A stretch of 64,000 bases of DNA, from positions 62,001-126,000 of the forward strand of contig JBECUI020000029.1 in NCBI GenBank assembly GCA_040954595.2. The letters run 5' to 3'. Position 1 is the stretch's first letter. Each line of letters starts with the position of its first letter. The stretch comes from Balanoglossus misakiensis. Lineage: Eukaryota; Animalia; Hemichordata. The notes below the pieces were generated by a model, which was not told the origin of the DNA, searched no databases, and saw nothing but the letters and a program-made list of their open reading frames with translations. The position numbers and the translations under genes were made by a program. Positions 20,029 through 61,055 of the stretch are shown piece by piece.

Positions 20029-21832
20029 AGTAAAGTTCCACGTGCATTCCTGGCCCTGGTTTTATTTATGTTTACAGACAATATTGCATTTTTGTACAAG
20101 TATTTTAATCAACTATAAATTTTGAATGTGTCATTTACCTGAACCGGTCATGTTGACCAGAATGATACATTTCTGCCTTCACTCACCCTATAAATATGTG
20201 ATTGAGACATAGGTCATTTGCATAAGCTAACATACCAGAAAGTAAGCATATCTGTTGTTTTCCCTGTGTCACTGCCATCAAAGTAAAAATTAGACGTTGT
20301 GTAGAGCAAACTCCAATTTTTTGTTCTCAATAAACATGGATGAATTACATAGAATGTGTTTGTTGTTTACAGTCTTTAAATGACACATTAGATTATGCAC
20401 TTTACAAAACGTTTCTGAGAAACAAGTGACTAACTAGTTTCTTTCCACTGTGGCCAACGTGGTTCACTGTTTGTGTCAGAATCTCTCTGTTTTGCAAGGA
20501 TTTTGAAATCATAGTGGTGACATGCATAGTGAAAATCAGCTACTTTCAAATGTCCGTCATGTTCATGCTGTAATTGAATTTTCAAAGCTGGGCTGGCGTG
20601 TTTTTTCTTATTTACATAAGTATCACACTTTATACATGTATCTTCATGGGGTTTTTTGAGTCCCGTATTTAGGTCCTCTCTCACAATTTTACGAAATATC
20701 GTATAACTGACAGTTGTTCTTCCCAGAAGAGATTGGTTGGTTATGAACTCTCGGTGTAACTGCGATATACTGTGGGCCGGCGCCAGGTACGGTTTAAATC
20801 GAGGATTCCTGCAGTAGTGAGATTCTACAATTCTGTGCCTGCGTACGTGTTCAGTGATATCAGTCAGCAAATTTGGATTGAGTTTCCGACGATGCCCTTT
20901 GTGTCGGCCCCTTGCATCTGGCATCAGACCAGTAAAGTTCCATGTGCATTCCTGGCCCTGGTTTTATTTATGTTTACAGACAATATTGCATTTTTGTACA
21001 AGTATTTTAATCAACTATAAATTTTGAATGTGTCATTTACCTGAACCGGTCATGTTGACCAGAATGATACATTTCTGCCTTCACTCACCCTATAAATATG
21101 TGATTGAGACATAGGTCATTTGCATAAGCTAACATACCAGAAAGTAAGCATATCTGATGTTTTCCCTGTGTCACTGCCATCAAAGTAAAAATTAGACGTT
21201 GTGTAGAGCAAACTCCAATTTTTTGTTCTCAATAAACATGGATGAATTACATAGAATGTGTTTGTTGTTTACAGTCTTTAAATGACACATTAGATTATGC
21301 ACTTTACAAAACGTTTCTGAGAAACAAGTGACTAACTAGTTTCTTTCCACTGTGGCCAACGTGGTTCACTGTTTGTGTCAGAATCTCTCTGTTTTGCAAG
21401 GATTTTGAAATCATAGTGGTGACATGCATAGTGAAAATCAGCTACTTTCAAATGTCCGTCATGTTCATGCTGTAATTGAATTTTCAAAGCTGGGCTGGCG
21501 TGTTTTTTCTTATTTACATAAGTATCACACTTTATACATGTATCTTCATGGGGTTTTCTGAGTCCCGTATTTAGGTCCTCTCTCACAATTTTACGAAATA
21601 TCGTATAACTGACAGTTGTTCTTCCCAGAAGAGATTGGTTGGTTATGAACTCTCGGTGTAACTGCGATATACTGTGGTCCGGTGCCAGGTACGGTTTAAA
21701 TCGAGGATTCCTGCAGTAGTGAGATTCTACAATTCTGTGCCTGCGTACGTGTTCAGTGATATCAGTCAGCAAATTTGGATTGAGTTTCCGACGATGCCCT
21801 TTGTGTCGGCCCCTTGCATCTGGCATCAGACC
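20029..21832. repeat. 902-bp direct tandem duplication (20029-20930 and 20931-21832)
   Basis: agtaaagttcca(c/t)gtgcattcctggcc occurs at 20029 and 20931, and the ORF stops at 20430 and 21332 are 902 bp apart. There are few substitutions and an AGT microhomology at the junction. Confidence 0.95.
20430..20924 (-). pseudogene. 5'-truncated duplicate (164 aa) of the transposase N-terminal-half gene
   Basis: Matches the last 164 aa of the 21332-22288 protein apart from two substitutions (PAH/PDH, LKK/LRK). It is cut off by the duplication junction. Confidence 0.8.
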
Positions 21833-22288
21833 AGTTGAACAGTGCATCATTTTGCTTAGAACGGTTCTAGTCCGCCTCTCACTAATGCCAAATAATTTCA
21901 GGAATGCATTTTTGCAGACAGTAACCGTTTCACCGCCTTCATTCACCAGGTGATAACGAACCGATTTCTTGTGTGACTTCATCTGCATATCCATCAGTTT
22001 GTAGAGCATCAAGTTCTGTTCATTATACACGCGACCATCAAAATATTTTCTCGTGGTGCCTAAAACATGCGTACTCCCAAGCTTCCGCATACAATTCCCT
22101 TGAACGCAGGCGCATTCCAAGGAAAGACTGTCAATATCTGGAAAAGGGCGATTTTTCCTTGGTTTTTGTCTCGGACACGTCTTTTTAGAATTCCTACGTG
22201 GCTTGTTGGCTCGAGCTGACAGTTCGGTTCTGCGTTGCTGCCACACAGGAATGGGTTCCCACGCATAAGCAACTCCCCGGCAGGCCAT
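21332..22288 (-). CDS. Sola1-like DNA transposase, N-terminal (DNA/Zn-binding) half, 318 aa from ATG 22288
   Basis: Motifs VCKNAFLKLFGIS, DARGRH, ESHYCR..YL..SISQLH, VSYTIFRKI and KPHEDTCIKCD..HDGHL match the region that precedes the catalytic core in invertebrate Sola1-type transposases (recognised from memory). The ORF is intact and a minus-strand AATAAA lies at ~20963-20968. Confidence 0.75.
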   Translation of the reverse strand: MACRGVAYAWEPIPVWQQRRTELSARANKPRRNSKKTCPRQKPRKNRPFPDIDSLSLECACVQGNCMRKLGSTHVLGTTRKYFDGRVYNEQNLMLYKLMDMQMKSHKKSVRYHLVNEGGETVTVCKNAFLKLFGISERRTRTVLSKMMHCSTGLMPDARGRHKGHRRKLNPNLLTDITEHVRRHRIVESHYCRNPRFKPYLAPDHSISQLHREFITNQSLLGRTTVSYTIFRKIVREDLNTGLRKPHEDTCIKCDTYVNKKKHASPALKIQLQHEHDGHLKVADFHYACHHYDFKILAKQRDSDTNSEPRWPQWKETS

Positions 22289-22335
22289 GGTCACAGCTGA
22301 AGTATTTGTTCAAGTACTGACTGACTAAACGCGGC

Positions 22336-23469
22336 ATGGAACAAACGAACGAACGACTTCACGTTCGGAAAAAAAATCGTTGCGAGCTGTTGGGTGCATG
22401 CCTCTATAGTTGTCGGCAACCGTTCTTTTTTATTGCTAAACAATGCTGTCAGAGCATGGAAGGTGTGGTGGAAAACGAACAGAGGTTTTGTACGACCAAC
22501 GATTGGATGGTGCTACATATGGACTTCCACAAGTCATTGCCGGTTCCTAAACTCAGCTCTGAAGACTTTTACTTTAAATCGAAATTGCAAATGAAGCTCC
22601 TTGGAATTTACAACGGGACAACGGAAAAGATGCATTGTTATGTATGGACAGAGCTCGATAGCAGAAAGTCTCCCGATGAAGTTATTACCTGTCTAAATCA
22701 CTTTTTTTATAACTCGGGTGTGACCAGCAGACATGCAGTTATTTACAGCGACAACTGCCGTGCCGAATTCAAGTGTGGGAAGTTAATGTTTTACTATGAC
22801 TATCTGTTACGAAAGGGCGTGTTTCGACGAATTGACTATAAAACTCTTGTGGCTGGACACACGTACTCCACCTGTGACCGAGTTTTTGCGTCCATTGAAA
22901 GGCATGCAAGTCGTTTCCAGAGTATAGAGACACCTCACGATTGGACATCTGTGATTCGAGGATCTTCTCTGAATGGGAACATTGGAGTTACGGAGATGAC
23001 TCACAGAGACTTTTTCAATTATTCTGATTTCCTGAAAAATGAGTACGTTGTGCGTTATGCAGATACAAACAATGTAACTTTTTACTACCAAGCCATGCAC
23101 TATTTTAATTTTGGAGAAGGAGAAAGGCTTGATACCGACGGCAACCTCAGAACATTTAGTCATGCAGATAAAGTTTGGGTGAGAACATCTCTAGATCCAA
23201 GCGAGACCCCGATTGTAGTCGACTTTAGAAAGAAGAAGCAGAACCGGCGTTTACAAGATTGTACGCTGAACAAACTTTATCAGGAACGTCGACCACTGGC
23301 GAGCAAAGTTTGGCGGGATCTTCAGAGTTTAGCCAAAAATTACCTGTCTCCGGAGGCAATAGAATTTTATAGGAATCTACCGCTTCAGGAGAGTAGTGGC
23401 ACCTCTGCAGACCCGTACGCCTTTCATGATGATGACGACGACGATGATGATGATATGGGCGGTGGTTGA
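22336..23469 (+). CDS. Sola1-like DDD transposase, catalytic (RNase H-fold) half, 377 aa (337 aa if ATG 22456 is used)
   Basis: Motifs HMDFHKSLPVP, FYFKSKL, CYVWTE..RKSPDEVITCL, IYSDNC and KTLVAGHTYSTCDRVFASIE supply three candidate catalytic Asp residues. There is a poly-Asp tail and AATAAA overlaps the stop (23469-23474). Confidence 0.82.
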   Translation: MEQTNERLHVRKKNRCELLGACLYSCRQPFFFIAKQCCQSMEGVVENEQRFCTTNDWMVLHMDFHKSLPVPKLSSEDFYFKSKLQMKLLGIYNGTTEKMHCYVWTELDSRKSPDEVITCLNHFFYNSGVTSRHAVIYSDNCRAEFKCGKLMFYYDYLLRKGVFRRIDYKTLVAGHTYSTCDRVFASIERHASRFQSIETPHDWTSVIRGSSLNGNIGVTEMTHRDFFNYSDFLKNEYVVRYADTNNVTFYYQAMHYFNFGEGERLDTDGNLRTFSHADKVWVRTSLDPSETPIVVDFRKKKQNRRLQDCTLNKLYQERRPLASKVWRDLQSLAKNYLSPEAIEFYRNLPLQESSGTSADPYAFHDDDDDDDDDMGGG

Positions 23470-23630
23470 ATAAACTGTCCTTTTCATGACGACAGTGATT
23501 TTGGATATTTGATGTGCGTGCACAGTTTATATGTAATATTTTCACACGAACGAGTTTTGACTGAATTTGATTAAAGAATGTACTCGATAATTAACAAATG
23601 TGCTGAATCGTGGTTATTATGTTGTTAATT

Positions 23631-23670
23631 TTTGTTTGTTTGTTTGTTTGTTTGTTTGTTTGTTTGTTTG
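23631..23670 (+). repeat. (TTTG)10 microsatellite
   Basis: Directly visible; also present in copy 2 at ~56486-56525. Confidence 0.95.
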
Positions 23671-23803
23671 TAAACAATTTCCGTTCATTCAACTGGCTAC
23701 AAAGTTGGATTTTTGTACTGGGAAGCGATAAACTCGCACATCAAAACCGGGGAGACTCGATCATTTTTCCCTGCAGGTAGCCTGAAAAGCACCCGGGCAG
23801 AGA

Positions 23804-23877
23804 TTACGTCATATATGGTCCACTTTAATACGAAATTATGCAAATGTGACATTTCACGGAAACGGCGTATATAAAAG
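23804..23877 (+). promoter_or_regulatory. Putative Pol II promoter of the winged-helix-SET gene
   Basis: CRE-like TTACGTCA at 23804, octamer ATGCAAAT at 23838 and TATATAAAAG at 23868, about 90 bp upstream of ATG 23969. Confidence 0.5.
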
Positions 23878-23968
23878 CGACCCTGGGCTATTGTTCGGAA
23901 TGCGTCATCGACGAGAGAGTGACTGATAATTCTTCTACCTCGAGTCAACCATTCTGTATATACTGAAC

Positions 23969-25306
23969 ATGGCTAGCTGGCGCAGGAAGAGACAAGGCAA
24001 TGTGCGGTCTGTAATCAACGAACGGCACCGCTCAGTTCAGTGTCCCTTTCTTCAAAAGTGGATCGGTGAGCAATTGGTATTTTCAGGTCGTTCAGAGGAT
24101 GAAGTCCAGTCCAGTACTGTATTTGAGAGCTACAAATGTTGGGTTGAAAACTATTCGTCGGCGGACAATCAAGTAATGATTATGGTTACTAAAGCTCGAT
24201 TTTTCAAGGTGAGAATGATCGCATTTTTCTTTCCCCCCCCCCCCCTCCCTCCCTCCCTCCCCCAAGGGACTCGTTTTCTGTCTCTTTTAAACCTGTAACT
24301 TAACGAAAAGGAAGTTTTTCACATATCTCTTCGTTGACACTATAGCAATTTGGAGCGCGGATGCTTCAAGAGAAGAGCGTTACCAAATCAAAGTCGGCCG
24401 GGGTTAATATTTATAGAGGTGTTCGTCTGAAAGCTGGTTCGCGAAGAATCTCAACGGGGAAACCTGAGCACAGTGTACTTCAGACCAGGGCAAGGGCATT
24501 TCTTGATGACGCCAGCGTGACCGTTCCGATCGAGGTAAGAATGGTGTTTTGTTTGGACTAGGACAATAGAACGTTGCAATGAGTGTGTCAATGGGTGTCC
24601 AAGTGCAAACGTGGTCTGCTTCTGTCCACAAATGCCATTAATTTTTGGCAGGATTTATAAAATTGTCAATGAAGAATACAAAAATGAAAAACAACAGTTA
24701 ATAGCAAACTGGTAGGATTGCAAGGGCTTGTAAAACGGTACACACTGTACCAGGAAGTTTGCAACACTAATGAAGAATGTATATGATATATTTAGGTGAG
24801 AACTGTTCGCGATCGCCGGGACGCAGGACGGTGCGCGTTTTCGACGAGGGATATTCAAGCCTGGGACGTCGTCTGCGAATACCGGGGCACGGTTATTAGC
24901 GTTGAAGAAGCTAGTCGGCGTGATGAGCTTTACAGGGCAGAGGGGAAACGACCACGCATGTTCCATCTCTACATTGGAAAGAGACACGTTGTGTGAGTGT
25001 ATCACTTAGTCGAATATATGGTCATATATTGCAAAGCATCTGTCGAAATAGAAAACGTAATATTGTCTATATTTTCCTCATTAACGCAGCATTGACGGAT
25101 ACGATGTCCCAGCCGGTGAAGAAAATTTAGCAGGCCTAATAAATCACAGTCAGCAGAACGCCAACTTGGTACCGGTTCGGATCGGAGAGCGCCTGGTTTT
25201 CTTTGCAACCAGGAATCTTTGTCAGGGAGTAGAGCTTTTGTATGATTACGGTGACGGGGGTGAAGAGGATTTCTTCAGTGGTTCTCAAACTTTTCCTGAA
25301 AATTAA
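23969..25306 (+). CDS. Winged-helix plus SET-domain lysine methyltransferase (SETD8/PR-Set7-like), 280 aa; exons 23969-24208, 24346-24534, 24796-24992, 25090-25306
   Basis: Three GT-AG introns (gtgaga/tatag, gtaaga/tttag, gtgagt/cgcag) join in frame to give 843 nt. SET motifs are AGRCAFSTRDI, VCEYRGTVI, IDG, LINHS and ELLYDYGD. The N-terminus VFESYKCWVEN..KARFFKQFG..IYRGVRLK resembles the winged helix of RFX factors and D5/P4 primase C-termini. Confidence 0.88.
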
Positions 25307-26209
25307 GGCATTAACACATCAACGCTTCGGGGTGTCGTAACGGCGGCGCGGCGGGGGGGGGGGGGACGTGAAAATGTTTGTATCAGGAACAAAATTCCCG
25401 TGCAAATCACCTTGATCCGGGTGGGTGGACTATTCGCGACAAATGTTGAAATCATACAAAGCATTTTACTTAATTAACCCATTTTTTTCATTTATTTGTT
25501 TACAGTTTACAACGTCATAGAGAAGTTGAACTAGAGACTGGATCAGCGTGGGTGACACCATAGTACACCAATGTTTTCTTCAGTTTGATTCAATTGTAAT
25601 TTAAAACTGAGATTGCCTAACGCTTTCCCAGATTTTTTTAACCACTGAGAAACTGTGGGTTTTTTTCTGGGTTTTGGTGCGAGGTGATCTCAGTCAGTGG
25701 TGTTAATTTAATTAATCATTTTCTTTTCCTATTTACGTCGACTGAAATGTATTTTGATAGGTGATAGTCATACCATAAAAAAAATCTTACGGCGCGACTG
25801 CCAAAATGTACATTTATTTGTCCGTTCCAAGTTATTTTGTGTATGTGTGATGGGTGCCGGTGACTGTGCAGGGTTGATTTCCCTAGAGCGACTGTTATAT
25901 TCGTTTTCCAACGATGATGAATTTACATGTTATTTGCTTGGCATTTTGACGCAGAGACACTTCTGAAAACACAAACCTATTAATTATGCCACGGGTGTAA
26001 ATTGATCACATTAAAAGAGGCTTTAGACGTTTGCCGCGAGCTCCTGGTGGGCAGAATCTTGTCAGCCCAAATTTGACTATAAGTACATAGCCAATGATGT
26101 GACGCTCTCCCACATCCTTCGCCGCGCCTTTTCGCTGATTTACAGCATCTTGCGTAAACACTGTCATTTGATCTTGCTTGGCAGAAGTCAACTTGCTCTA
26201 TACTACATT

Positions 26210-26575
26210 ATGGCGGCCAAGCTCAACTGCATATCAGATAATGCCAAGGAGCGTTTGAGAGGCATCCTCGCCAGAAGGAGTCGCGTTTCCGGTGACTGTG
26301 TGCTCTGGACGGGTGCAGCTTGTCGAAACGGCTATGGCTCTATTACGTTCAGAGATGAGAACACTCTAACCGCCTATGTCCATCACATTGCACTCCTAAT
26401 TAACGGAGTGCAATTGGTGGGCAGGCGGTTAGAGTGTTCTCATCTTTGCAACGAAAAGCTATGCATCCGCCCAGAGCACATTGTCCAGGAAACGCGACTC
26501 CTAAACATTTCACGAAAGACGTGCTTTAAATCCCCAAAAGGGGAGTGTCACCACGATCCCAGGTGCCTAAGGTGA
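26210..26575 (+). CDS. His-Cys box (I-PpoI-like, His-Me finger) endonuclease, 121 aa
   Basis: Motifs CVLWTG..NGYG, YVHH, CSHLCNEKLCIRPEHIVQE..N..RKTC..CHHDPRC match the zinc-binding-loop homing endonuclease pattern. The first ATG is at 26210 (the ORF-track start at 26099 is GTG). Confidence 0.88.
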   Translation: MAAKLNCISDNAKERLRGILARRSRVSGDCVLWTGAACRNGYGSITFRDENTLTAYVHHIALLINGVQLVGRRLECSHLCNEKLCIRPEHIVQETRLLNISRKTCFKSPKGECHHDPRCLR

Positions 26576-26845
26576 GTAATCCTCTTCTCATTTGATATGT
26601 ATTGTGTGACCCTGCAGTTGAAACGCTTTCATCAATAATTTGCGGCGCGTGGGTAATCTCGGTGTTATTGACAATGCAGCCGGCCCAAACATTTTTAAAT
26701 TAACACTGTTTCTGACTGTATTAACGAAATGTCCAATTTGCAAGTAGCCTATAGACAACCCTTTTGAATGAGTTTTGTCTCGTTGAGATTTTATACATAA
26801 GGAACAATCTAGATTTATTTTAGAAGACACTGTTCTTTTAAAACA

Positions 26846-27237
26846 GCTAGCATAATACAGCTAAATTTCGGAATTTCCGGACAATTTTCGGAATTCCTTT
26901 TAAATTTGAGAAATTTTTCATCAGATATAAGTGTTACTATTTATTGGACATGTTTTTATCATTGTTTACTTTTTAAGGTCATTCTCACCCCCCCCCCCCC
27001 AAAAAAAGCCGCTTTAGGCTTCATGTTCAGTAAAAAATCTGGAAAGTTCAGCTGAATTTTACACTGATCACACATTTTTGGGAAGGTCTGGCGCAAAATA
27101 AAGGATGACAAATGTAAATCTAATGTCACATTTGTAAACCTCTAAGTATTGTACACTCATTCTATTAAGTATATGCAAATAGTACGGATAATTTTTTCGG
27201 AATGTGGAATTCCGAAATTAGTTCGGAACGTGTTAGC
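26846..27237. mobile_element. Possible decayed non-autonomous DNA element with imperfect inverted ends
   Basis: ctaaatttcggaatt (26861) is inverted relative to aattccgaaattag (27208), and TTCGGAA-like motifs cluster at both ends. No TSD was identified. Confidence 0.3.
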
Positions 27238-27483
27238 AGTGAAGAGATCACCACTGAGGGTTGGAAGGCCTTGCCAGAAATTAACGCGTAAAGTACGCCC
27301 TCACAGGCCATGTAAACAAGGTCAAATAAGGCCGTCTGGCAAACGAATGATTAATTCAACGCGCCATTTGAGCCGAGCTGAGTTGGTCTGAGTTGCGTAT
27401 CACACAGACTTAGGCTGAATGTCAGTGGAGTAACCAGTCCGTTTTAGATTTACCAATGATGTGAATTTAATTTCTTCACCCAG

Positions 27484-27890
27484 AAAAACAGAACACAACT
27501 TGTCTGCAACATGATGCTGGAGGTGACACATGACAGAGAAGTGGATCCGCGTTGTCAACACAGATGCCAGCATTCAAAAGGGGAGTGCCACCTGCTAAAA
27601 TCAACTCATCTGCTGTTGGCCCATTTTACCTGTGGCAACTGTTCAGAGGAGACAACGTTTATTCCGTGCAAGCCAACACGCAATGTTGGGGTCTACCTGT
27701 CAACACAGATGCAAGCATTCATGTGAGTGAGTATCAGGACTGACCTTGTATTTGCTGAATAATTCATAATGCCTATTTTAGAATTCTTAGAGGCATTTGG
27801 AGTTCATTGCCTGGTCAACCAAACTACACCCCTTAACAGCTGAAACAAAATGCGTATTGTGTTCATTCATTCATTGCATCAATATATATA
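27484..27890 (+). repeat. Diverged progenitor-like copies of the array monomer (two hairpins plus the intron-like part)
   Basis: Segments colinear with the monomer: cacagatgccagcattca, aactcatctgctgttggcc, gtgagtgagt, tgcctattttagaattctta and ttcattcattcattgcatcaatatat. Confidence 0.85.
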
Positions 27891-28151
27891 GGCAACATGA
27901 GTATCAAGTAGCACTATTTGTTTACGATTGTATTCATGAAAACTTCCCACTAACAATTCCACAGTTAATATTGAACACATTTATCCAACAAGGTCAAAAG
28001 AAAAAGGGAATCTTCTGGTTCCAAAATACGCCACAAATGTGGGTCAACATACAGTGAAATATTATGGTGCTCAAATATGCAACATATCAAATCTGTCTCA
28101 TCAAAGTCATGCTTTAAAAAAGAATTGAAAAGGTATTATTTATCCATTTGA
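27875..28151 (+). pseudogene. Decayed 3' end of a non-LTR retrotransposon ORF2 (CR1/L2/Crack-like)
   Basis: The frameshifted translation YQVALFVYDCIHENFP / HIYPTRSKEKGNLLVPKYATNVGQHTVKYYGAQICN / IKSVSSKSCFKKELKRYYL* matches the typical HxYxTR..LxVP..TxxG..YxG..WN..FKxxLK C-terminus of these LINEs. Confidence 0.75.
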
Positions 28152-28194
28152 CTGCTGTATTTTCAGAAGGAAAACAAACTGAATTTGGTTTTTC

Positions 28195-31100
28195 AAGTAC
28201 CTTATATTTTCTGTAAAATAGACATTTAATTGGCAAGCCGTCCTGCATCAATTATTAATTGTGTACATGCACTAAAGCGCCCTCACTGCTGGGTGTGTTG
28301 TATGGTCTTTAACCCTGTTTCAAATTAGAGTACTTTCTGCAATTTCAAGACAGATCTTACGTGCCATTGGAGAGCTCCATTGACTGGTCATTCATACTGT
28401 TTTCATTCATTCATTGCGGCATCAATATATTTTATCTATTCTAGCCAAAGAGCTTGGCACCTGTTGAAATGAACTCATCTGCTGTGGGCCAGTTTATTGG
28501 TGGCAGTTGAGCTGAGGAGAGCACCTTCCTTCCCGGCACGCCACCAAGTAAAGTTCCACGCCGCCCACCACAGATGCCAGCATTCATTCATGCGAGTGAG
28601 TGTAATTGCAAATTTGCCTATTCTAGATCTGTAATGGAAATGGAGAAAGTACCTTATATTTTCTGTAAAATAGACATTTAATTGGCAAGCCGTCCTGCAT
28701 CAATTATTAATTGTGTACATGCACTAAAGCGCCCTCACTGCTGGGTGTGTTGTATGGTCTTTAACCCTGTTTCAAATTAGAGTACTTTCTGCAATTTCAA
28801 GACAGATCTTACGTGCCATTGGAGAGCTCCATTGACTGGTCATTCATACTGTTTTCATTCATTCATTGCGGCATCAATATATTTTATCTATTCTAGCCAA
28901 AGAGCTTGGCACCTGTTGAAATGAACTCATCTGCTGTGGGCCAGTTTATTGGTGGCAGTTGAGCTGAGGAGAGCACCTTCCTTCCCGGCACGCCACCAAG
29001 TAAAGTTCCACGCCGCCCACCACAGATGCCAGCATTCATTCATGCGAGTGAGTGTAATTGCAAATTTGCCTATTCTAGATCTGTAATGGAAATGGAGAAA
29101 GTACCTTATATTTTCTGTAAAATAGACATTTAATTGGCAAGCCGTCCTGCATCAATTATTAATTGTGTACATGCACTAAAGCGCCCTCACTGCTGGGTGT
29201 GTTGTATGGTCTTTAACCCTGTTTCAAATTAGAGTACTTTCTGCAATTTCAAGACAGATCTTACGTGCCATTGGAGAGCTCCATTGACTGGTCATTCATA
29301 CTGTTTTCATTCATTCATTGCGGCATCAATATATTTTATCTATTCTAGCCAAAGAGCTTGGCACCTGTTGAAATGAACTCATCTGCTGTGGGCCAGTTTA
29401 TTGGTGGCAGTTGAGCTGAGGAGAGCACCTTCCTTCCCGGCACGCCACCAAGTAAAGTTCCACGCCGCCCACCACAGATGCCAGCATTCATTCATGCGAG
29501 TGAGTGTAATTGCAAATTTGCCTATTCTAGATCTGTAATGGAAATGGAGAAAGTACCTTATATTTTCTGTAAAATAGACATTTAATTGGCAAGCCGTCCT
29601 GCATCAATTATTAATTGTGTACATGCACTAAAGCGCCCTCACTGCTGGGTGTGTTGTATGGTCTTTAACCCTGTTTCAAATTAGAGTACTTTCTGCAATT
29701 TCAAGACAGATCTTACGTGCCATTGGAGAGCTCCATTGACTGGTCATTCATACTGTTTTCATTCATTCATTGCGGCATCAATATATTTTATCTATTCTAG
29801 CCAAAGAGCTTGGCACCTGTTGAAATGAACTCATCTGCTGTGGGCCAGTTTATTGGTGGCAGTTGAGCTGAGGAGAGCACCTTCTTTCCCGGCACGCCAC
29901 CAAGTAAAGTTCCACGCCGCCCACCACAGATGCCAGCATTCATTCATGCGAGTGAGTGTAATTGCAAATTTGCCTATTCTAGATCTGTAATGGAAATGGA
30001 GAAAGTACCTTATATTTTCTGTAAAATAGACATTTAATTGGCAAGCCGTCCTGCATCAATTATTAATTGTGTACATGCACTAAAGCGCCCTCACTGCTGG
30101 GTGTGTTGTATGGTCTTTAACCCTGTTTCAAATTAGAGTACTTTCTGCAATTTCAAGACAGATCTTACGTGCCATTGGAGAGCTCCATTGACTGGTCATT
30201 CATACTGTTTTCATTCATTCATTGCGGCATCAATATATTTTATCTATTCTAGCCAAAGAGCTTGGCACCTGTTGAAATGAACTCATCTGCTGTGGGCCAG
30301 TTTATTGGTGGCAGTTGAGCTGAGGAGAGCACCTTCCTTCCCGGCACGCCACCAAGTAAAGTTCCACGCCGCCCACCACAGATGCCAGCATTCATTCATG
30401 CGAGTGAGTGTAATTGCAAATTTGCCTATTCTAGATCTGTAATGGAAATGGAGAAAGTACCTTATATTTTCTGTAAAATAGACATTTAATTGGCAAGCCG
30501 TCCTGCATCAATTATTAATTGTGTACATGCACTAAAGCGCCCTCACTGCTGGGTGTGTTGTATGGTCTTTAACCCTGTTTCAAATTAGAGTACTTTCTGC
30601 AATTTCAAGACAGATCTTACGTGCCATTGGAGAGCTCCATTGACTGGTCATTCATACTGTTTTCATTCATTCATTGCGGCATCAATATATTTTATCTATT
30701 CTAGCCAAAGAGCTTGGCACCTGTTGAAATGAACTCATCTGCTGTGGGCCAGTTTATTGGTGGCAGTTGAGCTGAGGAGAGCACCTTCCTTCCCGGCACG
30801 CCACCAAGTAAAGTTCCACGCCGCCCACCACAGATGCCAGCATTCATTCATGCGAGTGAGTGTAATTGCAAATTTGCCTATTCTAGAATTCTTACGTGCC
30901 ATTGGAGAGCTCCATTGACTGGTCATTCATACTGTTTTCATTCATTCATTGCGGCATCAATATATTTTATCTATTCTAGCCAAAGAGCTTGGCACCTGTT
31001 GAAATGAACTCATCTGCTGTGGGCCAGTTTATTGGTGGCAGTTGAGCTGAGGAGAGCACCTTCCTTCCCGGCACGCCACCAAGTAAAGTTCCACGCCGCC

Positions 31101-43100: not shown

Positions 43101-46100
43101 TATTTTATCTATTCTAGCCAAAGAGCTTGGCACCTGTTGAAATGAACTCATCTGCTGTGGGCCAGTTTATTGGTGGCAGTTGAGCTGAGGAGAGCACCTT
43201 CCTTCCCGGCACGCCACCAAGTAAAGTTCCACGCCGCCCACCACAGATGCCAGCATTCATTCATGCGAGTGAGTGTAATTGCAAATTTGCCTATTCTAGA
43301 TCTGTAATGGAAATGGAGAAAGTACCTTATATTTTCTGTAAAATAGACATTTAATTGGCAAGCCGTCCTGCATCAATTATTAATTGTGTACATGCACTAA
43401 AGCGCCCTCACTGCTGGGTGTGTTGTATGGTCTTTAACCCTGTTTCAAATTAGAGTACTTTCTGCAATTTCAAGACAGATCTTACGTGCCATTGGAGAGC
43501 TCCATTGACTGGTCATTCATACTGTTTTCATTCATTCATTGCGGCATCAATATATTTTATCTATTCTAGCCAAAGAGCTTGGCACCTGTTGAAATGAACT
43601 CATCTGCTGTGGGCCAGTTTATTGGTGGCAGTTGAGCTGAGGAGAGCACCTTCCTTCCCGGCACGCCACCAAGTAAAGTTCCACGCCGCCCACCACAGAT
43701 GCCAGCATTCATTCATGCGAGTGAGTGTAATTGCAAATTTGCCTATTCTAGATCTGTAATGGAAATGGAGAAAGTACCTTATATTTTCTGTAAAATAGAC
43801 ATTTAATTGGCAAGCCGTCCTGCATCAATTATTAATTGTGTACATGCACTAAAGCGCCCTCACTGCTGGGTGTGTTGTATGGTCTTTAACCCTGTTTCAA
43901 ATTAGAGTACTTTCTGCAATTTCAAGACAGATCTTACGTGCCATTGGAGAGCTCCATTGACTGGTCATTCATACTGTTTTCATTCATTCATTGCGGCATC
44001 AATATATTTTATCTATTCTAGCCAAAGAGCTTGGCACCTGTTGAAATGAACTCATCTGCTGTGGGCCAGTTTATTGGTGGCAGTTGAGCTGAGGAGAGCA
44101 CCTTCCTTCCCGGCACGCCACCAAGTAAAGTTCCACGCCGCCCACCACAGATGCCAGCATTCATTCATGCGAGTGAGTGTAATTGCAAATTTGCCTATTC
44201 TAGATCTGTAATGGAAATGGAGAAAGTACCTTATATTTTCTGTAAAATAGACATTTAATTGGCAAGCCGTCCTGCATCAATTATTAATTGTGTACATGCA
44301 CTAAAGCGCCCTCACTGCTGGGTGTGTTGTATGGTCTTTAACCCTGTTTCAAATTAGAGTACTTTCTGCAATTTCAAGACAGATCTTACGTGCCATTGGA
44401 GAGCTCCATTGACTGGTCATTCATACTGTTTTCATTCATTCATTGCGGCATCAATATATTTTATCTATTCTAGCCAAAGAGCTTGGCACCTGTTGAAATG
44501 AACTCATCTGCTGTGGGCCAGTTTATTGGTGGCAGTTGAGCTGAGGAGAGCACCTTCCTTCCCGGCACGCCACCAAGTAAAGTTCCACGCCGCCCACCAC
44601 AGATGCCAGCATTCATTCATGCGAGTGAGTGTAATTGCAAATTTGCCTATTCTAGATCTGTAATGGAAATGGAGAAAGTACCTTATATTTTCTGTAAAAT
44701 AGACATTTAATTGGCAAGCCGTCCTGCATCAATTATTAATTGTGTACATGCACTAAAGCGCCCTCACTGCTGGGTGTGTTGTATGGTCTTTAACCCTGTT
44801 TCAAATTAGAGTACTTTCTGCAATTTCAAGACAGATCTTACGTGCCATTGTAGAGCTCCATTGACTGGTCATTCATACTGTTTTCATTCATTCATTGCGG
44901 CATCAATATATTTTATCTATTCTAGCCAAAGAGCTTGGCACCTGTTGAAATGAACTCATCTGCTGTGGGCCAGTTTATTGGTGGCAGTTGAGCTGAGGAG
45001 AGCACCTTCCTTCCCGGCACGCCACCAAGTAAAGTTCCACGCCGCCCACCACAGATGCCAGCATTCATTCATGCGAGTGAGTGTAATTGCAAATTTGCCT
45101 ATTCTAGAATTCTTACGTGCCATTGGAGAGCTCCATTGACTGGTCATTCATACTGTTTTCATTCATTCATTGCGGCATCAATATATTTTATCTATTCTAG
45201 CCAAAGAGCTTGGCACCTGTTGAAATGAACTCATCTGCTGTGGGCCAGTTTATTGGTGGCAGTTGAGCTGAGGAGAGCACCTTCCTTCCCGGCACGCCAC
45301 CAAGTAAAGTTCCACGCCGCCCACCACAGATGCCAGCATTCATTCATGCGAGTGAGTGTAATTGCAAATTTGCCTATTCTAGATCTGTAATGGAAATGGA
45401 GAAAGTACCTTATATTTTCTGTAAAATAGACATTTAATTGGCAAGCCGTCCTGCATCAATTATTAATTGTGTACATGCACTAAAGCGCCCTCACTGCTGG
45501 GTGTGTTGTATGGTCTTTAACCCTGTTTCAAATTAGAGTACTTTCTGCAATTTCAAGACAGATCTTACGTGCCATTGGAGAGCTCCATTGACTGGTCATT
45601 CATACTGTTTTCATTCATTCATTGCGGCATCAATATATTTTATCTATTCTAGCCAAAGAGCTTGGCACCTGTTGAAATGAACTCATCTGCTGTGGGCCAG
45701 TTTATTGGTGGCAGTTGAGCTGAGGAGAGCACCTTCTTTCCCGGCACGCCACCAAGTAAAGTTCCACGCCGCCCACCACAGATGCCAGCATTCATTCATG
45801 CGAGTGAGTGTAATTGCAAATTTGCCTATTCTAGAATCTTACGTGCCATTGGAGAGCTCCATTGACTGGTCATTCATACTGTTTTCATTCATTCATTGCG
45901 GCATCAATATATTTTATCTATTCTAGCCAAAGAGCTTGGCACCTGTTGAAATGAACTCATCTGCTGTGGGCCAGTTTATTGGTGGCAGTTGAGCTGAGGA
46001 GAGCACCTTCTTTCCCGGCACGCCACCAAGTAAAGTTCCACGCCGCCCACCACAGATGCCAGCATTCATTCATGCGAGTGAGTGTAATTGCAAATTTGCC

Positions 46101-49100
46101 TATTTACGTGCCATTGGAGAGCTCCATTGACTGGTCATTCATACTGTTTTCATTCATTCATTGCGGCATCAATATATTTTATCTATTCTAGCCAAAGAGC
46201 TTGGCACCTGTTGAAATGAACTCATCTGCTGTGGGCCAGTTTATTGGTGGCAGTTGAGCTGAGGAGAGCACCTTCCTTCCCGGCACGCCACCAAGTAAAG
46301 TTCCACGCCGCCCACCACAGATGCCAGCATTCATTCATGCGAGTGAGTGTAATTGCAAATTTGCCTATTCTAGATCTGTAATGGAAATGGAGAAAGTACC
46401 TTATATTTTCTGTAAAATAGACATTTAATTGGCAAGCCGTCCTGCATCAATTATTAATTGTGTACATGCACTAAAGCGCCCTCACTGCTGGGTGTGTTGT
46501 ATGGTCTTTAACCCTGTTTCAAATTAGAGTACTTTCTGCAATTTCAAGACAGATCTTACGTGCCATTGGAGAGCTCCATTGACTGGTCATTCATACTGTT
46601 TTCATTCATTCATTGCGGCATCAATATATTTTATCTATTCTAGCCAAAGAGCTTGGCACCTGTTGAAATGAACTCATCTGCTGTGGGCCAGTTTATTGGT
46701 GGCAGTTGAGCTGAGGAGAGCACCTTCTTTCCCGGCACGCCACCAAGTAAAGTTCCACGCCGCCCACCACAGATGCCAGCATTCATTCATGCGAGTGAGT
46801 GTAATTGCAAATTTGCCTATTCTAGAATCTTACGTGCCATTGGAGAGCTCCATTGACTGGTCATTCATACTGTTTTCATTCATTCATTGCGGCATCAATA
46901 TATTTTATCTATTCTAGCCAAAGAGCTTGGCACCTGTTGAAATGAACTCATCTGCTGTGGGCCAGTTTATTGGTGGCAGTTGAGCTGAGGAGAGCACCTT
47001 CTTTCCCGGCACGCCACCAAGTAAAGTTCCACGCCGCCCACCACAGATGCCAGCATTCATTCATGCGAGTGAGTGTAATTGCAAATTTGCCTATTCTAGA
47101 ATCTTACGTGCCATTGGAGAGCTCCATTGACTGGTCATTCATACTGTTTTCATTCATTCATTGCGGCATCAATATATTTTATCTATTCTAGCCAAAGAGC
47201 TTGGCACCTGTTGAAATGAACTCATCTGCTGTGGGCCAGTTTATTGGTGGCAGTTGAGCTGAGGAGAGCACCTTCCTTCCCGGCACGCCACCAAGTAAAG
47301 TTCCACGCCGCCCACCACAGATGCCAGCATTCATTCATGCGAGTGAGTGTAATTGCAAATTTGCCTATTCTAGAATCTTACGTGCCATTGGAGAGCTCCA
47401 TTGACTGGTCATTCATACTGTTTTCATTCATTCATTGCGGCATCAATATATTTTATCTATTCTAGCCAAAGAGCTTGGCACCTGTTGAAATGAACTCATC
47501 TGCTGTGGGCCAGTTTATTGGTGGCAGTTGAGCTGAGGAGAGCACCTTCCTTCCCGGCACGCCACCAAGTAAAGTTCCACGCCGCCCACCACAGATGCCA
47601 GCATTCATTCATGCGAGTGAGTGTAATTGCAAATTTGCCTATTCTAGAATCTTACGTGCCATTGGAGAGCTCCATTGACTGGTCATTCATACTGTTTTCA
47701 TTCATTCATTGCGGCATCAATATATTTTATCTATTCTAGCCGAAGAGCTTGGCACCTGTTGAAATGAACTCATCTGCTGTGGGCCAGTTTATTGGTGGCA
47801 GTTGAGCTGAGGAGAGCACCTTCCTTCCCGGCACGCCACCAAGTAAAGTTCCACGCCGCCCACCACAGATGCCAGCATTCATTCATGCGAGTGAGTGTAA
47901 TTGCAAATTTGCCTATTCTAGATCTGTAATGGAAATGGAGAAAGTACCTTATATTTTCTGTAAAATAGACATTTAATTGGCAAGCCGTCCTGCATCAATT
48001 ATTAATTGTGTACATGCACTAAAGCGCCCTCACTGCTGGGTGTGTTGTATGGTCTTTAACCCTGTTTCAAATTAGAGTACTTTCTGCAATTTCAAGACAG
48101 ATCTTACGTGCCATTGGAGAGCTCCATTGACTGGTCATTCATACTGTTTTCATTCATTCATTGCGGCATCAATATATTTTATCTATTCTAGCCAAAGAGC
48201 TTGGCACCTGTTGAAATGAACTCATCTGCTGTGGGCCAGTTTATTGGTGGCAGTTGAGCTGAGGAGAGCACCTTCCTTCCCGGCACGCCACCAAGTAAAG
48301 TTCCACGCCGCCCACCACAGATGCCAGCATTCATTCATGCGAGTGAGTGTAATTGCAAATTTGCCTATTCTAGATTCTTACGTGCCATTGGAGAGCTCCA
48401 TTGACTGGTCATTCATACTGTTTTCATTCATTCATTGCGGCATCAATATATTTTATCTATTCTAGCCAAAGAGCTTGGCACCTGTTGAAATGAACTCATC
48501 TGCTGTGGGCCAGTTTATTGGTGGCAGTTGAGCTGAGGAGAGCACCTTCCTTCCCGGCACGCCACCAAGTAAAGTTCCACGCCGCCCACCACAGATGCCA
48601 GCATTCATTCATGCGAGTGAGTGTAATTGCAAATTTGCCTATTCTAGAATCTTACGTGCCATTGGAGAGCTCCATTGACTGGTCATTCATACTGTTTTCA
48701 TTCATTCATTGCGGCATCAATATATTTTATCTATTCTAGCCAAAGAGCTTGGCACCTGTTGAAATGAACTCATCTGCTGTGGGCCAGTTTATTGGTGGCA
48801 GTTGAGCTGAGGAGAGCACCTTCCTTCCCGGCACGCCACCAAGTAAAGTTCCACGCCGCCCACCACAGATGCCAGCATTCATTCATGCGAGTGAGTGTAA
48901 TTGCAAATTTGCCTATTCTAGATCTGTAATGGAAATGGAGAAAGTACCTTATATTTTCTGTAAAATAGACATTTAATTGGCAAGCCGTCCTGCATCAATT
49001 ATTAATTGTGTACATGCACTAAAGCGCCCTCACTGCTGGGTGTGTTGTATGGTCTTTAACCCTGTTTCAAATTAGAGTACTTTCTGCAATTTCAAGACAG

Positions 49101-52100
49101 ATCTTACGTGCCATTGGAGAGCTCCATTGACTGGTCATTCATACTGTTTTCATTCATTCATTGCGGCATCAATATATTTTATCTATTCTAGCCAAAGAGC
49201 TTGGCACCTGTTGAAATGAACTCATCTGCTGTGGGCCAGTTTATTGGTGGCAGTTGAGCTGAGGAGAGCACCTTCCTTCCCGGCACGCCACCAAGTAAAG
49301 TTCCACGCCGCCCACCACAGATGCCAGCATTCATTCATGCGAGTGAGTGTAATTGCAAATTTGCCTATTCTAGATCTGTAATGGAAATGGAGAAAGTACC
49401 TTATATTTTCTGTAAAATAGACATTTAATTGGCAAGCCGTCCTGCATCAATTATTAATTGTGTACATGCACTAAAGCGCCCTCACTGCTGGGTGTGTTGT
49501 ATGGTCTTTAACCCTGTTTCAAATTAGAGTACTTTCTGCAATTTCAAGACAGATCTTACGTGCCATTGGAGAGCTCCATTGACTGGTCATTCATACTGTT
49601 TTCATTCATTCATTGCGGCATCAATATATTTTATCTATTCTAGCCAAAGAGCTTGGCACCTGTTGAAATGAACTCATCTGCTGTGGGCCAGTTTATTGGT
49701 GGCAGTTGAGCTGAGGAGAGCACCTTCCTTCCCGGCACGCCACCAAGTAAAGTTCCACGCCGCCCACCACAGATGCCAGCATTCATTCATGCGAGTGAGT
49801 GTAATTGCAAATTTGCCTATTCTAGATCTGTAATGGAAATGGAGAAAGTACCTTATATTTTCTGTAAAATAGACATTTAATTGGCAAGCCGTCCTGCATC
49901 AATTATTAATTGTGTACATGCACTAAAGCGCCCTCACTGCTGGGTGTGTTGTATGGTCTTTAACCCTGTTTCAAATTAGAGTACTTTCTGCAATTTCAAG
50001 ACAGATCTTACGTGCCATTGGAGAGCTCCATTGACTGGTCATTCATACTGTTTTCATTCATTCATTGCGGCATCAATATATTTTATCTATTCTAGCCAAA
50101 GAGCTTGGCACCTGTTGAAATGAACTCATCTGCTGTGGGCCAGTTTATTGGTGGCAGTTGAGCTGAGGAGAGCACCTTCCTTCCCGGCACGCCACCAAGT
50201 AAAGTTCCACGCCGCCCACCACAGATGCCAGCATTCATTCATGCGAGTGAGTGTAATTGCAAATTTGCCTATTCTAGATCTGTAATGGAAATGGAGAAAG
50301 TACCTTATATTTTCTGTAAAATAGACATTTAATTGGCAAGCCGTCCTGCATCAATTATGAATTGTGTACATGCACTAAAGCGCCCTCACTGCTGGGTGTG
50401 TTGTATGGTCTTTAACCCTGTTTCAAATTAGAGTACTTTCTGCAATTTCAAGACAGATCTTACGTGCCATTGGAGAGCTCCATTGACTGGTCATTCATAC
50501 TGTTTTCATTCATTCATTGCGGCATCAATATATTTTATCTATTCTAGCCAAAGAGCTTGGCACCTGTTGAAATGAACTCATCTGCTGTGGGCCAGTTTAT
50601 TGGTGGCAGTTGAGCTGAGAAGAGCACCTTCCTTCCCGGCACGCCACCAAGTAAAGTTCCACGCCGCCCACCACAGATGCCAGCATTCATTCATGCGAGT
50701 GAGTGTAATTGCAAATTTGCCTATTCTAGATCTGTAATGGAAATGGAGAAAGTACCTTATATTTTCTGTAAAATAGACATTTAATTGGCAAGCCGTCCTG
50801 CATCAATTATGAATTGTGTACATGCACTAAAGCGCCCTCACTGCTGGGTGTGTTGTATGGTCTTTAACCCTGTTTCAAATTAGAGTACTTTCTGCAATTT
50901 CAAGACAGATCTTACGTGCCATTGGAGAGCTCCATTGACTGGTCATTCATACTGTTTTCATTCATTCATTGCGGCATCAATATATTTTATCTATTCTAGC
51001 CAAAGAGCTTGGCACCTGTTGAAATGAACTCATCTGCTGTGGGCCAGTTTATTGGTGGCAGTTGAGCTGAGCAGAGCACCTTCCTTCCCGGCACGCCACC
51101 AAGTAAAGTTCCACGCCGCCCACCACAGATGCCAGCATTCATTCATGCGAGTGAGTGTAATTGCAAATTTGCCTATTCTAGATCTGTAATGGAAATGGAG
51201 AAAGTACCTTATATTTTCTGTAAAATAGACATTTAATTGGCAAGCCGTCCTGCATCAATTATGAATTGTGTACATGCACTAAAGCGCCCTCACTGCTGGG
51301 TGTGTTGTATGGTCTTTAACCCTGTTTCAAATTAGAGTACTTTCTGCAATTTCAAGACAGATCTTACGTGCCATTGGAGAGCTCCATTGACTGGTCATTC
51401 ATACTGTTTTCATTCATTCATTGCGGCATCAATATATTTTATCTATTCTAGCCAAAGAGCTTGGCACCTGTTGAAATGAACTCATCTGCTGTGGGCCAGT
51501 TTATTGGTGGCAGTTGAGCTGAGAAGAGCACCTTCCTTCCCGGCACGCCACCAAGTAAAGTTCCACGCCGCCCACCACAGATGCCAGCATTCATTCATGC
51601 GAGTGAGTGTAATTGCAAATTTGCCTATTCTAGATCTGTAATGGAAATGGAGAAAGTACCTTATATTTTCTGTAAAATAGACATTTAATTGGCAAGCCGT
51701 CCTGCATCAATTATGAATTGTGTACATGCACTAAAGCGCCCTCACTGCTGGGTGTGTTGTATGGTCTTTAACCCTGTTTCAAATTAGAGTACTTTCTGCA
51801 ATTTCAAGACAGATCTTACGTGCCATTGGAGAGCTCCATTGACTGGTCATTCATACTGTTTTCATTCATTCATTGCGGCATCAATATATTTTATCTATTC
51901 TAGCCAAAGAGCTTGGCACCTGTTGAAATGAACTCATCTGCTGTGGGCCAGTTTATTGGTGGCAGTTGAGCTGAGGAGAGCACCTTCCTTCCCGGCACGC
52001 CACCAAGTAAAGTTCCACGCCGCCCACCACAGATGCCAGCATTCATTCATGCGAGTGAGTGTAATTGCAAATTTGCCTATTCTAGATCTGTAATGGAAAT

Positions 52101-52897
52101 GGAGAAAGTACCTTATATTTTCTGTAAAATAGACATTTAATTGGCAAGCCGTCCTGCATCAATTATTAATTGTGTACATGCACTAAAGCGCCCTCACTGC
52201 TGGGTGTGTTGTATGGTCTTTAACCCTGTTTCAAATTAGAGTACTTTCTGCAATTTCAAGACAGATCTTACGTGCCATTGGAGAGCTCCATTGACTGGTC
52301 ATTCATACTGTTTTCATTCATTCATTGCGGCATCAATATATTTTACAGCCGAAATTATGAAAGGTCGCCGATTCAATATGTGATCTAGACGTCCTGTGTG
52401 CACTGAACACACGATGTGTTTATCTAACACAAACAACAGAACCTCTCATAAAAGAGATGCGGTATCATTAGACTAATTACAGATGGTAGTCTGGAAACAC
52501 GCTCCCCCTCAGAGAGAGTTGTTTACTTGGGTACGATGTCAAAGTTTAATCTCAAAGTGTATACGCTTTATGTTGAGAGTGTACCCAAGTAAACAACTCT
52601 CTCTGAGGGGGAGCGTGTTTCCAGACTACCATCTGTAATTAGTCTAATGATACCGCATCTCTTTTATGAGAGGTTCTGTTGTTTGTGTTAGATAAACACA
52701 TCGTGTGTTCAGTGCACACAGGACGTCTAGATCACATATTGAATCGGCGACCTTTCATAATTTCGGCTGTATCTATTCTAGCCAAAGAGCTTGGCACCTG
52801 TTGAAATGAACTCATCTGCTGTGGGCCAGTTTATTGGTGGCAGTTGAGCTGAGGAGAGCACCTTCCTTCCCGGCACGCCACCAAGTACAGTTCCACG
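28195..52897 (+). repeat. Tandem array 2: ~65 monomers (24.7 kb) between the two cassettes
   Basis: Same monomer classes as array 1, with three full higher-order blocks separated by variable runs of mostly 452-bp units. Confidence 0.98.
52346..52769. mobile_element. 424-bp palindromic MITE (Tc1/mariner-type): 189-bp TIRs, 46-bp spacer, TA target-site duplication
   Basis: Reads TA|cagccgaaattatgaaaggtcgccg...cggcgacctttcataatttcggctg|TA, with arms at 52346-52534 and 52581-52769. The empty site 'attttatctattc' is present in the other monomers. Confidence 0.96.
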
Positions 52898-55143: not shown

Positions 55144-55190
55144 GGTCACAGCTGAAGTATTTGTTCAAGTACTGACTGACTAAACGCGGC

Positions 55191-56324: not shown

Positions 56325-56823
56325 ATAAACTGTCCTTTTCATGACGACAGTGATTTTGGATATTTGATGTGCGTGCACAGTTTATATGTAATATTTTCAC
56401 ACGAACGAGTTTTGACTGAATTTGATTAAAGAATGTACTCGATAATTAACAAATGTGCTGAATCGTGGTTATTATGTTGTTAATTTTTGTTTGTTTGTTT
56501 GTTTGTTTGTTTGTTTGTTTGTTTGTAAACAATTTCCGTTCATTCAACTGGCTACAAAGTTGGATTTTTGTACTGGGAAGCGATAAACTCGCACATCAAA
56601 ACCGGGGAGACTCGATCATTTTTCCCTGCAGGTAGCCTGAAAAGCACCCGGGCAGAGATTACGTCATATATGGTCCACTTTAATACGAAATTATGCAAAT
56701 GTGACATTTCACGGAAACGGCGTATATAAAAGCGACCCTGGGCTATTGTTCGGAATGCGTCATCGACGAGAGAGTGACTGATAATTCTTCTACCTCGAGT
56801 CAACCATTCTGTATATACTGAAC

Positions 56824-61012: not shown

Positions 61013-61055
61013 CTGCTGTATTTTCAGAAGGAAAACAAACTGAATTTGGTTTTTC

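Follow-up and report, generated by a model that had tools for sequence, protein, structure and literature searches.

A split Sola1-type transposon with a winged-helix–SET gene, joined to a homing-type nuclease and a tandem array in the acorn worm Balanoglossus misakiensis

A 64-kb stretch of the genome of Balanoglossus misakiensis (Hemichordata; GenBank assembly GCA_040954595.2, contig JBECUI020000029.1, positions 62,001 to 126,000 of the forward strand; hereafter the window, numbered from its first base) comprises a tandem array that is interrupted twice by one 8.15-kb cassette. The cassette holds four genes: the two halves of a split transposase (open reading frames ORF1 and ORF2), a predicted winged-helix–SET gene, and a homing-type nuclease. 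It very probably represents a Sola1-type lineage with a split transposase and SET cargo, and this split-transposase lineage of animal DNA transposon is apparently undescribed. For the locus as a whole we slightly favor a composite-like Sola1 element, with array modules (block B) as ends, a two-gene transposase, and nuclease-driven repeat amplification. Coordinates are given in Table 1.

ORF1 and ORF2 are divergent, with 169 bp between the ORF1 start and ORF2. ORF2, for which an alternative in-frame ATG upstream at 22336 would give a protein of 377 amino acids (aa; P0002), matches Pfam DUF7869 (expectation value, E, 1.4e-14), and its catalytic triad D63/D139/D181 (P0002 numbering) is kept in all six split members and in at least 90% of 55 alignment rows. 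Consensus letters of the published Sola1 profile (supplement of PMC5751038) match ORF2 at positions 5-30 and 57-71 in an unscored comparison by eye. No paper naming DUF7869 was found in the literature search. Among 795 candidate proteins of 207-660 aa (longer fused forms lie outside this range), the relatives of ORF2 at E<=1e-10 are three near-length matches, all stand-alone proteins of 306-313 aa with the same start point just before the first Asp; one of them is from Saccoglossus kowalevskii. For ORF1, an HMMER scan gave 2,593 matches at E<=0.001; among the best 150, the top six (306-347 aa) match end-to-end, have no catalytic domain and share a common C-terminal tail, and 77 of the 150 do contain the catalytic domain. 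One cluster of split-type N-terminal halves includes a protein of the coral Oculina patagonica.

In a tree of the N-terminal half (first 35 of 56 fused proteins taken; eight partial rows ungrouped), ten split proteins were placed on one branch against 35 fused proteins (support 99/95), and in a tree of the catalytic half six split proteins were placed on one branch against 28 fused proteins (Shimodaira–Hasegawa-like approximate likelihood-ratio support, SH-aLRT, 96). The break point corresponds to the 26-34-residue linker of the fused relatives, between a conserved His and the first Asp. The divergent layout recurs at one related locus on a metagenome contig (L004), with the N-terminal half on the minus strand and the catalytic half on the plus strand (E 2.5e-7). 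Furthermore, the best match to the N-terminal half (P0011) and the best match to the catalytic half (P0004) each lie on a single 2,400-bp contig, and the two contigs may be one and the same. Judged from these sequences, both halves form clades apart from the fused relatives, and the transposase is genuinely split into two genes; the split is old and a conserved trait of a lineage. A split transposase had been proposed in an earlier sequence-only reading of the window, and the stand-alone relatives, the clades and the L004 layout bear this out as a lineage feature.

The predicted structure of ORF1 (predicted local distance difference test score, pLDDT, 68) returned no match in the Foldseek check that had been suggested for it. 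In the VIA comparison the best rows for this model included TnsB DNA-binding regions (Z 6.9, root-mean-square deviation 3.6, 68 aligned; Z 5.8), a resemblance that was below the trustworthy level and was discarded; the predicted structure of ORF2 is of low confidence (pLDDT 42). An invertible segment that would fuse ORF1 to ORF2 was also considered and rejected, because no inverted repeat links the break regions among the 25 longest pairs and because both halves have their own conserved ends. No relatives were found in the viral contigs or prokaryote genomes searched. A word-index protein search with ORF1 returned nothing from 267 candidates; this search is insensitive, as the HMMER scan did find ORF1 relatives. 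ORF2 ends in an acidic poly-Asp tail (23420-23460) that is absent from its homologs.

The winged-helix–SET gene is modeled with exons at 23969-24208, 24346-24534, 24796-24992 and 25090-25306, GT-AG introns and an open frame. The first exon is similar to the winged helices of Pox_D5 (Atlas score 0.97; the family occurs on 25-71% of cluster members). Exons three and four together make a SET domain (found on the two exons with E 1.7e-4 and 1.6e-7) in which the NHS and ELLYDYG motifs are present. Metagenome contig L001 contains three colinear exon matches to this gene beside a catalytic half (E 0.0015, 3.6e-8 and 0.0015; the two weaker ones were reached in 0 of 100 shuffles), and hence the gene travels with the lineage. 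The sequence-only reading had named a DNA-binding histone methyltransferase of SETD8 type that writes H4K20me1. The L001 homolog supports a predicted winged-helix–SET gene as part of the lineage; the more specific identity was not sustained, as the last exon has KMT5A among its best solved matches (E 8e-4) and the preceding exon is best matched by KMT2C. With moderate preference, we take the substrate to be a histone rather than another protein. A fifth exon at 24652-24711 was tried and rejected, as it gives stops; this short open stretch in the second SET intron has good splice sites and resembles a pre-SET helix off the reading frame, and is possibly an alternative or lost exon.

The related loci number four in total (metagenome contigs L001-L004, 1.3-5.2 kb). 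Stops or frameshifts are found in L001, L003 and L004, and dN/dS is 0.34 for L001/L003. In L002, the start-codon region of the catalytic half (192-224) pairs with a segment ~550 bp past the stop (1674-1706) as a 33-bp inverted repeat (85%), which could be another fold-back control or end structure. L003 has a 101-bp palindromic insertion (74-174) just upstream of the catalytic-half gene that is absent from L001. The sequence-only reading had proposed a search for co-occurrence of the genes and array in other loci; the SET gene was met beside the catalytic half in L001, whereas neither nuclease nor array was met at the four loci.

The two cassettes are 99.9% identical over 8,892 aligned bp and differ by three substitutions, of which one lies in the flank, and by two indels of 3 bp within homopolymer tracts. 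Both are joined to the array at the same bases: on the left directly after base 204 of the array monomer A, and on the right to block B, which is entered at its base 26. The offsets between the cassettes are 32,855 and 32,861 bp, and colinearity of the array flanks extends no further than ~0.13 kb to the left and ~2.7 kb to the right; hence, the array turns over faster than the cassette. A cassette present twice with the same array junctions, four intact genes in each copy (ORF1, ORF2, the four-exon SET model and the nuclease are all open) and diverged monomers inside it had each been described in the sequence-only reading, correctly. Its ~33-kb unit is retained as a spacing (32.9 kb) and not as a clean duplicate, given the short colinear flanks.

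The array alternates a spacer (A) with a 177-bp module bounded by inverted repeats (B), in units of 265-275 bp and 452 bp, with identical junctions to both cassettes. Monomer A is highly uniform: 82 of 122 copies equal the consensus, 37 have one change and three have two. Module B has the ends CTG..CAG and is flanked by AT on each side (wider flanks, AGAT and ATCT). The segment from the left B repeat upstream of cassette 1 to the right B repeat downstream of it (19659-28353; 8,695 bp) holds all four genes, with only the last 6 bp of a left B repeat remaining at the right junction of the cassette; from their sequence, the B inverted repeats are candidate transposase substrates only. The simple junctions (n=122) comprise 68 with B and 54 without, and the latter are of four types (n=36, 8, 6 and 4): three types correspond to rejoined flanks in which the innermost base is missing from one side, missing from the other, or replaced by its complement on both, and the fourth is a 9-bp deletion. 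Three of these scar types recur in X2, one of two sets of sequencing-run contigs (X1 and X2) from one sample; a third run, X3 (share 0.05), yielded only short, low-depth pieces and was left aside. The presence of such scars at a single site suggests that B was excised repeatedly and the site repaired, or that breaks made by the nuclease were repaired. In its transversions the pattern is similar to footprints of the hairpin type.

Diverged pieces of monomer A are found within the cassette at 27586-27732 (71% over 151 bp; 84 bits, where the best of 60 shuffles scored 29.7), 27850-27887 and 27556-27576. In addition, in one X2 contig a diverged monomer runs into the cassette's left junction at the homologous base (27675 to 20932; short side 51 letters), X1 shows a linked variant of this joint, and further joints in X1 and X2 (27887 to 27589 and 27575) indicate separate arrays of diverged monomers. 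The link between monomer and cassette thus predates the divergence of the monomers. The fossil monomers in the cassette, together with the paralogous contig in which a diverged monomer meets the cassette's left end, tie the array to the element, as the sequence-only reading had argued, and the array probably belongs to it. X1 and X2 contigs skip 27456-27853 (396 bp, with most of the fossil monomers), which represents a cassette variant or a paralog without them.

A hairpin repeat array with a possible RNA role had also been proposed. The whole monomer folds with z-scores of -0.35 and +0.58 on the two strands and a hand-picked core with z -2.7; with window choice allowed for, the best monomer window was reached by 6/150 and 17/150 shuffles (p ~0.04-0.11), and Rfam gave no matches at E<=1 across 19000-30000. 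The hairpin of the monomer itself is marginal, and the array-as-RNA idea was dropped on the weak folding and the lack of Rfam matches.

Strong RNA structure is predicted in the nuclease mRNA instead. The nuclease aligns with I-PpoI over residues 58-121 (E 0.002) with catalytic and zinc-binding residues kept, and it retains the residues given as catalytic or conserved in PMC9587614; its designation as a homing-type nuclease holds. Several diverged paralogs exist in the same genome, and a word-index protein search of limited sensitivity returned nothing for the nuclease (four candidates). The predicted hairpin has 87 long-range pairs (81 Watson-Crick, 6 G-U) in helices of 15, 11, 26 and 10 bp and a folding energy of -154 kcal/mol, i.e. 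z -18 against dinucleotide shuffles and -15 against synonymous shuffles. None of 300 synonymous resamplings and none of 300 synonymous shuffles folded below -88 kcal/mol, and thus the protein sequence does not force the hairpin. Seven control segments of ORF1 gave z +1.1 to -2.1, and a hairpin of this strength was found in one of 33 windows tiled across the cassette. One HNH profile spans both arms (residues 11-115), hence the hairpin is not a foreign foldback insertion; bulges in the stem shift the codon register along it. The hairpin in the nuclease coding sequence and the block B inverted repeats are new beyond the sequence-only reading. The hairpin may, on a narrow balance, be regarded as regulatory, its likely role being to limit a genotoxic enzyme; a duplex of 87 bp is long enough for Dicer or ADAR. 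An 18-bp direct repeat (17/18) is shared by the 3' end of the nuclease ORF (26535-26552) and the start of the fossil monomers (27575-27592).

Table 1. Features of the B. misakiensis window (bp; position 1 is the first base of the 64-kb stretch).
Feature	Position	Strand	Remarks
Array upstream	1-20042	+	best higher-order period 7,243 bp; extends beyond window
Block B module upstream of cassette 1	19659-19835	+	177 bp; 24-bp imperfect inverted repeats (19/24)
Candidate left end of autonomous unit bounded by terminal inverted repeats	19659-19682	+	left B repeat, nearest to cassette 1
Monomer A, bases 1-204	19839-20042	+	joined to cassette 1 left end
Direct duplicate, ORF1 3' part and its downstream region	20029-20933	-	905 bp; = 20931-21835
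Cassette 1	20043-28194		8.15 kb, four open genes
ORF1 (P0001, 318 aa)	21332-22288	-	N-terminal Cys/His-rich half, predicted DNA-binding; clade-specific tail at end
ORF2	22458-23469	+	336 aa from the likely start at 22458; catalytic half, RNase H-like, DUF7869
Winged-helix–SET gene, predicted	23969-25306	+	four exons, 280 aa
Nuclease ORF, zf-His_Me_endon	26210-26575	+	E 6.7e-13; 121 codons
Predicted hairpin in nuclease coding sequence	26276-26502	+	227 nt, codons 23-98 of 121
Probable inserted dispersed repeat (fragment) in cassette	26864-27235	.	23-bp inverted repeat; many contigs end at both borders
Fossil array in cassette	27556-27887	+	diverged monomer-A pieces, incl. B-less AATT-type junction near 27770-27795
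Block B, base 26 to right inverted repeat	28195-28353	+	repeat 28330-28353, candidate right end
Array between cassettes	28195-52897	+	65 A monomers, 36 complete B left ends; higher-order blocks ~5-9 kb
Foldback miniature inverted-repeat transposable element (MITE)	52346-52769		424 bp, near-perfect; CAG..CTG ends, TA duplication
Cassette 2	52898-61055		four open genes; nuclease ORF the same as in copy 1; ORF1 differs by one amino acid
Array downstream	61056-64000	+	extends beyond window

Other features concern the cassette borders and copy number. The 905-bp duplicate is without the start-codon region and has five differences from the main ORF1 copy. X1 contigs cover this duplicated part at a depth of 1,565 and the rest of the cassette at ~690-810, and the twofold depth suggests that most cassette copies carry the duplicate; from the depth ratio to several paralog contigs (20-36), we infer ~20-40 cassette copies in the genome, if the paralog contigs are single-copy. 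The duplication begins within array-like sequence with a 3-bp overlap (20029-20041 and 20931-20943), and the sole flank substitution between the cassette copies (20033/52888) falls in the same 13 bp. The foldback MITE lies in the monomer just upstream of cassette 2 only and is present as a single copy in the window. A (TTTG)10 microsatellite is located downstream of ORF2 (23631-23671).

In the composite-like Sola1 element that we favor, the B modules would supply the ends, and the interior would be either spacer A, or A plus the gene cassette. The two transposase halves, expressed from a bidirectional promoter of ~170 bp, would assemble in trans, and the reassembled transposase would excise or move segments bounded by B repeats. 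The B-less junctions would be excision footprints (AT|module|AT rejoined, with the innermost base lost or transverted, or with the 9-bp deletion), and the array would represent the non-autonomous multimer of the element, (B-A)n. Breaks within the repeats would be made by the His-Cys box nuclease, for which the B junction is the foremost candidate site, and repair by unequal exchange would amplify the locus; that the nuclease drives amplification is, in our estimate, an even proposition. The coding hairpin could restrain the genotoxic nuclease through processing by Dicer or ADAR, or through a block of translation, and the winged-helix–SET protein could methylate chromatin on the element's own repeats. 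An extended form, i.e. restorative homing in its own satellite, where the transposase excises B, the nuclease cuts AATT, B or the cassette is recopied, the hairpin provides self-silencing and the SET protein sets the chromatin, is unlikely as a full account.

Several observations weigh against the composite-like explanation. The B inverted repeats match at only 8 of their outer 12 bases, the internal B flanks have no 4-bp AWWT duplication (a Sola1 hallmark; PMC3845634), and the cassette has no complete left B repeat of its own, nor is one found inside it (best, 16/24). Neither nuclease nor array was seen beside the four related loci, which are short, so the link of the nuclease to the lineage rests on this genome; each of the four may be a decayed copy. 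The SET gene of L001 lies head to head with the catalytic half with no N-terminal half between them, and gene order is therefore not fixed; the first S-adenosylmethionine-binding motif (GxG) of the cassette SET gene is altered to A-G-R-C. The split rows in the tree of the N-terminal half were nearest matches selected by the C-terminal tail, and their clustering is partly built in. The sample behind X1 and X2 is perhaps the source of the window itself, and X2 has ligation-like joints; at the right junction, an X1 contig stops matching at 28200 and has loose ends elsewhere, and the X2 contig that crosses the junction has only 30 letters on the B side. In the nuclease paralogs few letters of the hairpin are readable (one G-U to A-U-compatible change, and one change without a readable partner).

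The alternative that survives best, a serious although unlikely one, makes the element a mere passenger of a satellite that belongs to the host. A split-Sola1/SET element, perhaps together with a nuclease gene of separate acquisition, would have become embedded there long ago, B would be an unrelated MITE, and satellite turnover would have co-amplified the cassette. This would agree with the lack of array and nuclease at four of four related loci, with cassette junctions without a complete left repeat or target duplication, with two other probable MITEs inserted in the unit, and with flanks that differ between the cassette copies. It is difficult to reconcile with four genes open in both cassettes, with monomer pieces in the cassette that are 29% diverged and a paralog with a diverged monomer at the same left junction, and with four scar types clustered at one site in otherwise near-identical monomers.

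A homing cycle at one site is quite improbable, and is partly compatible with the composite-like element. Here, the AATT B-less junction would be the nuclease target, B would be copied in by gene conversion (restorative homing in trans), and the one-base and 9-base deletions would be cleavage-resistant end-joining scars. The AATT form is the rarest of the B-less junctions (4/54), matches the fossil junction in the cassette and is palindromic over a core of 8 bp; the site cut by I-PpoI is a semi-palindrome, and the cut leaves overhangs of four bases (PMC9587614). However, a simple insertion into AATT would not give the occupied junction, excision followed by loss or transversion of a single base accounts just as well for the three short scars, and AATT is a candidate target only.

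We consider it very unlikely that the locus is host-co-opted or a suppressor, with hairpin-derived small interfering RNAs against related nuclease genes, or with a chromatin or centromere-like block, and with vestigial mobility. The extremely stable hairpin with near-perfect 15- and 26-bp helices, the diverged nuclease paralogs and the higher-order repeat structure would fit such a role; against it, the catalytic residues of both nuclease and transposase are intact, both hairpin arms lie within one nuclease profile match whereas a suppressor hairpin need not code, and the relatives are scattered, decaying copies. An assembly artefact from collapsed or duplicated reads, which the 99.9% identity of the copies and the possible origin of X1 and X2 from the source sample might suggest, is extremely improbable, since two libraries cover the cassette (X1 at ~690-810 against 20-36 for the paralogs), with alleles of both copies and three scar types.

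KolobokP (PMC9587614) had been cited for comparison in the sequence-only reading as a transposon that pairs a DDD/E transposase with a His-Me finger nuclease and long direct repeats, with a different transposase and no SET gene, and this comparison was accurate. KolobokP likewise forms multimers, (LTDR-INT)n (LTDR, long terminal direct repeat), which are analogous to (B-A)n, and has module-less junctions with micro-deletions, analogous to the 54 B-less junctions of four types that occur alongside the 68 with B. The transposase is of Kolobok type there and of split Sola1 type here; the LTDR of ~450 or 660 bp with RR..YY termini contrasts with a 177-bp module with CTG..CAG (only the A+B period, 452 bp, is near 450); and the KolobokP nuclease lies on the strand opposite to its transposase, whereas here it lies on the strand of the catalytic half. 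Transposase, module length, termini and nuclease strand rule out membership in KolobokP. Here, in addition, a SET gene is present and the arrays have tens of non-coding units per cassette; no mention of a coding hairpin for KolobokP was found in the parts of the text covered, nor does the term occur in the supplements that were searched. For KolobokP, induced unequal crossover was put forward as a model and is untested.

With Sola1 the element shares a catalytic domain that follows the profile, the D-D-D triad, and an N-terminal half that matches the N-terminal part of the fused relatives. A described Sola1 example of 2.8 kb carries a single ORF of 630 aa and shows AWWT duplications (PMC3845634); here there are two divergent ORFs (also in L004), two cargo genes, tandem organization, and no AWWT duplication at internal junctions. 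The nuclease is like I-PpoI and other His-Cys box enzymes in its sequence match and in its catalytic and zinc-binding residues, but in contrast to I-PpoI it is not in a group I intron, and its coding sequence folds on itself; a homing endonuclease gene of a group I intron in rDNA was rejected on 0 Rfam matches at E<=1 in 19000-30000. Phage homing endonucleases are repressed by short RNA hairpins at the ribosome-binding site (PMC2988022); the proposed likeness is that RNA structure limits a homing nuclease, while here the 87-bp duplex is wholly coding and in a eukaryote. The SET protein resembles SETD8/KMT5A in the NHS and ELLYDYG motifs and the last-exon match, and differs in the Pox_D5-like N-terminal winged helix, the KMT2C-best preceding exon and the altered GxG. 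Dada transposons are likewise tied to one repeated sequence, but have a different transposase and target host RNA genes, with no nuclease reported (PMC13565253).

In section 6.3 of this review of September 2026 (PMC13565253), KolobokP is the one transposon named as having such a nuclease; a passage elsewhere in it mentions Sola2 only with Fanzor. According to the review, restoration of a transposon by classical homing nucleases is theoretically possible, but only where the transposon is confined to a single sequence, and no such nuclease is reported in its example family, Dada. No split Sola transposase, and no Sola with SET or His-Me cargo, was found in the literature search, as judged from listings, with subscription papers, Repbase Reports and bioRxiv supplements outside its scope; there is about one chance in four that some family of this clade is catalogued in Repbase.

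If the composite-like explanation is true, the B. misakiensis element would show that the multimer design of transposase plus homing nuclease, so far described only for KolobokP in the papers searched, arose a second time independently, and it would provide a concrete route for a transposon to build a higher-order satellite; if the restorative-homing form is true as well, this would be a self-building, self-regulating satellite of up to ~1 megabase. Since the copies are intact and near-identical, and since alleles of the candidate cut site exist in occupied, empty and scarred form, the models of induced unequal crossover and of restorative homing can be tested directly. The naturally split DDD transposase, from coral to acorn worm, shows where the DNA-binding and catalytic modules separate. 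In the 87-bp duplex both arms code for a conserved nuclease, an unusual example of dual coding that suggests a way for selfish elements to live with a genotoxic gene. A SET protein that is carried by a transposon and predicted to bind DNA would be a candidate for marking the element's own chromatin.

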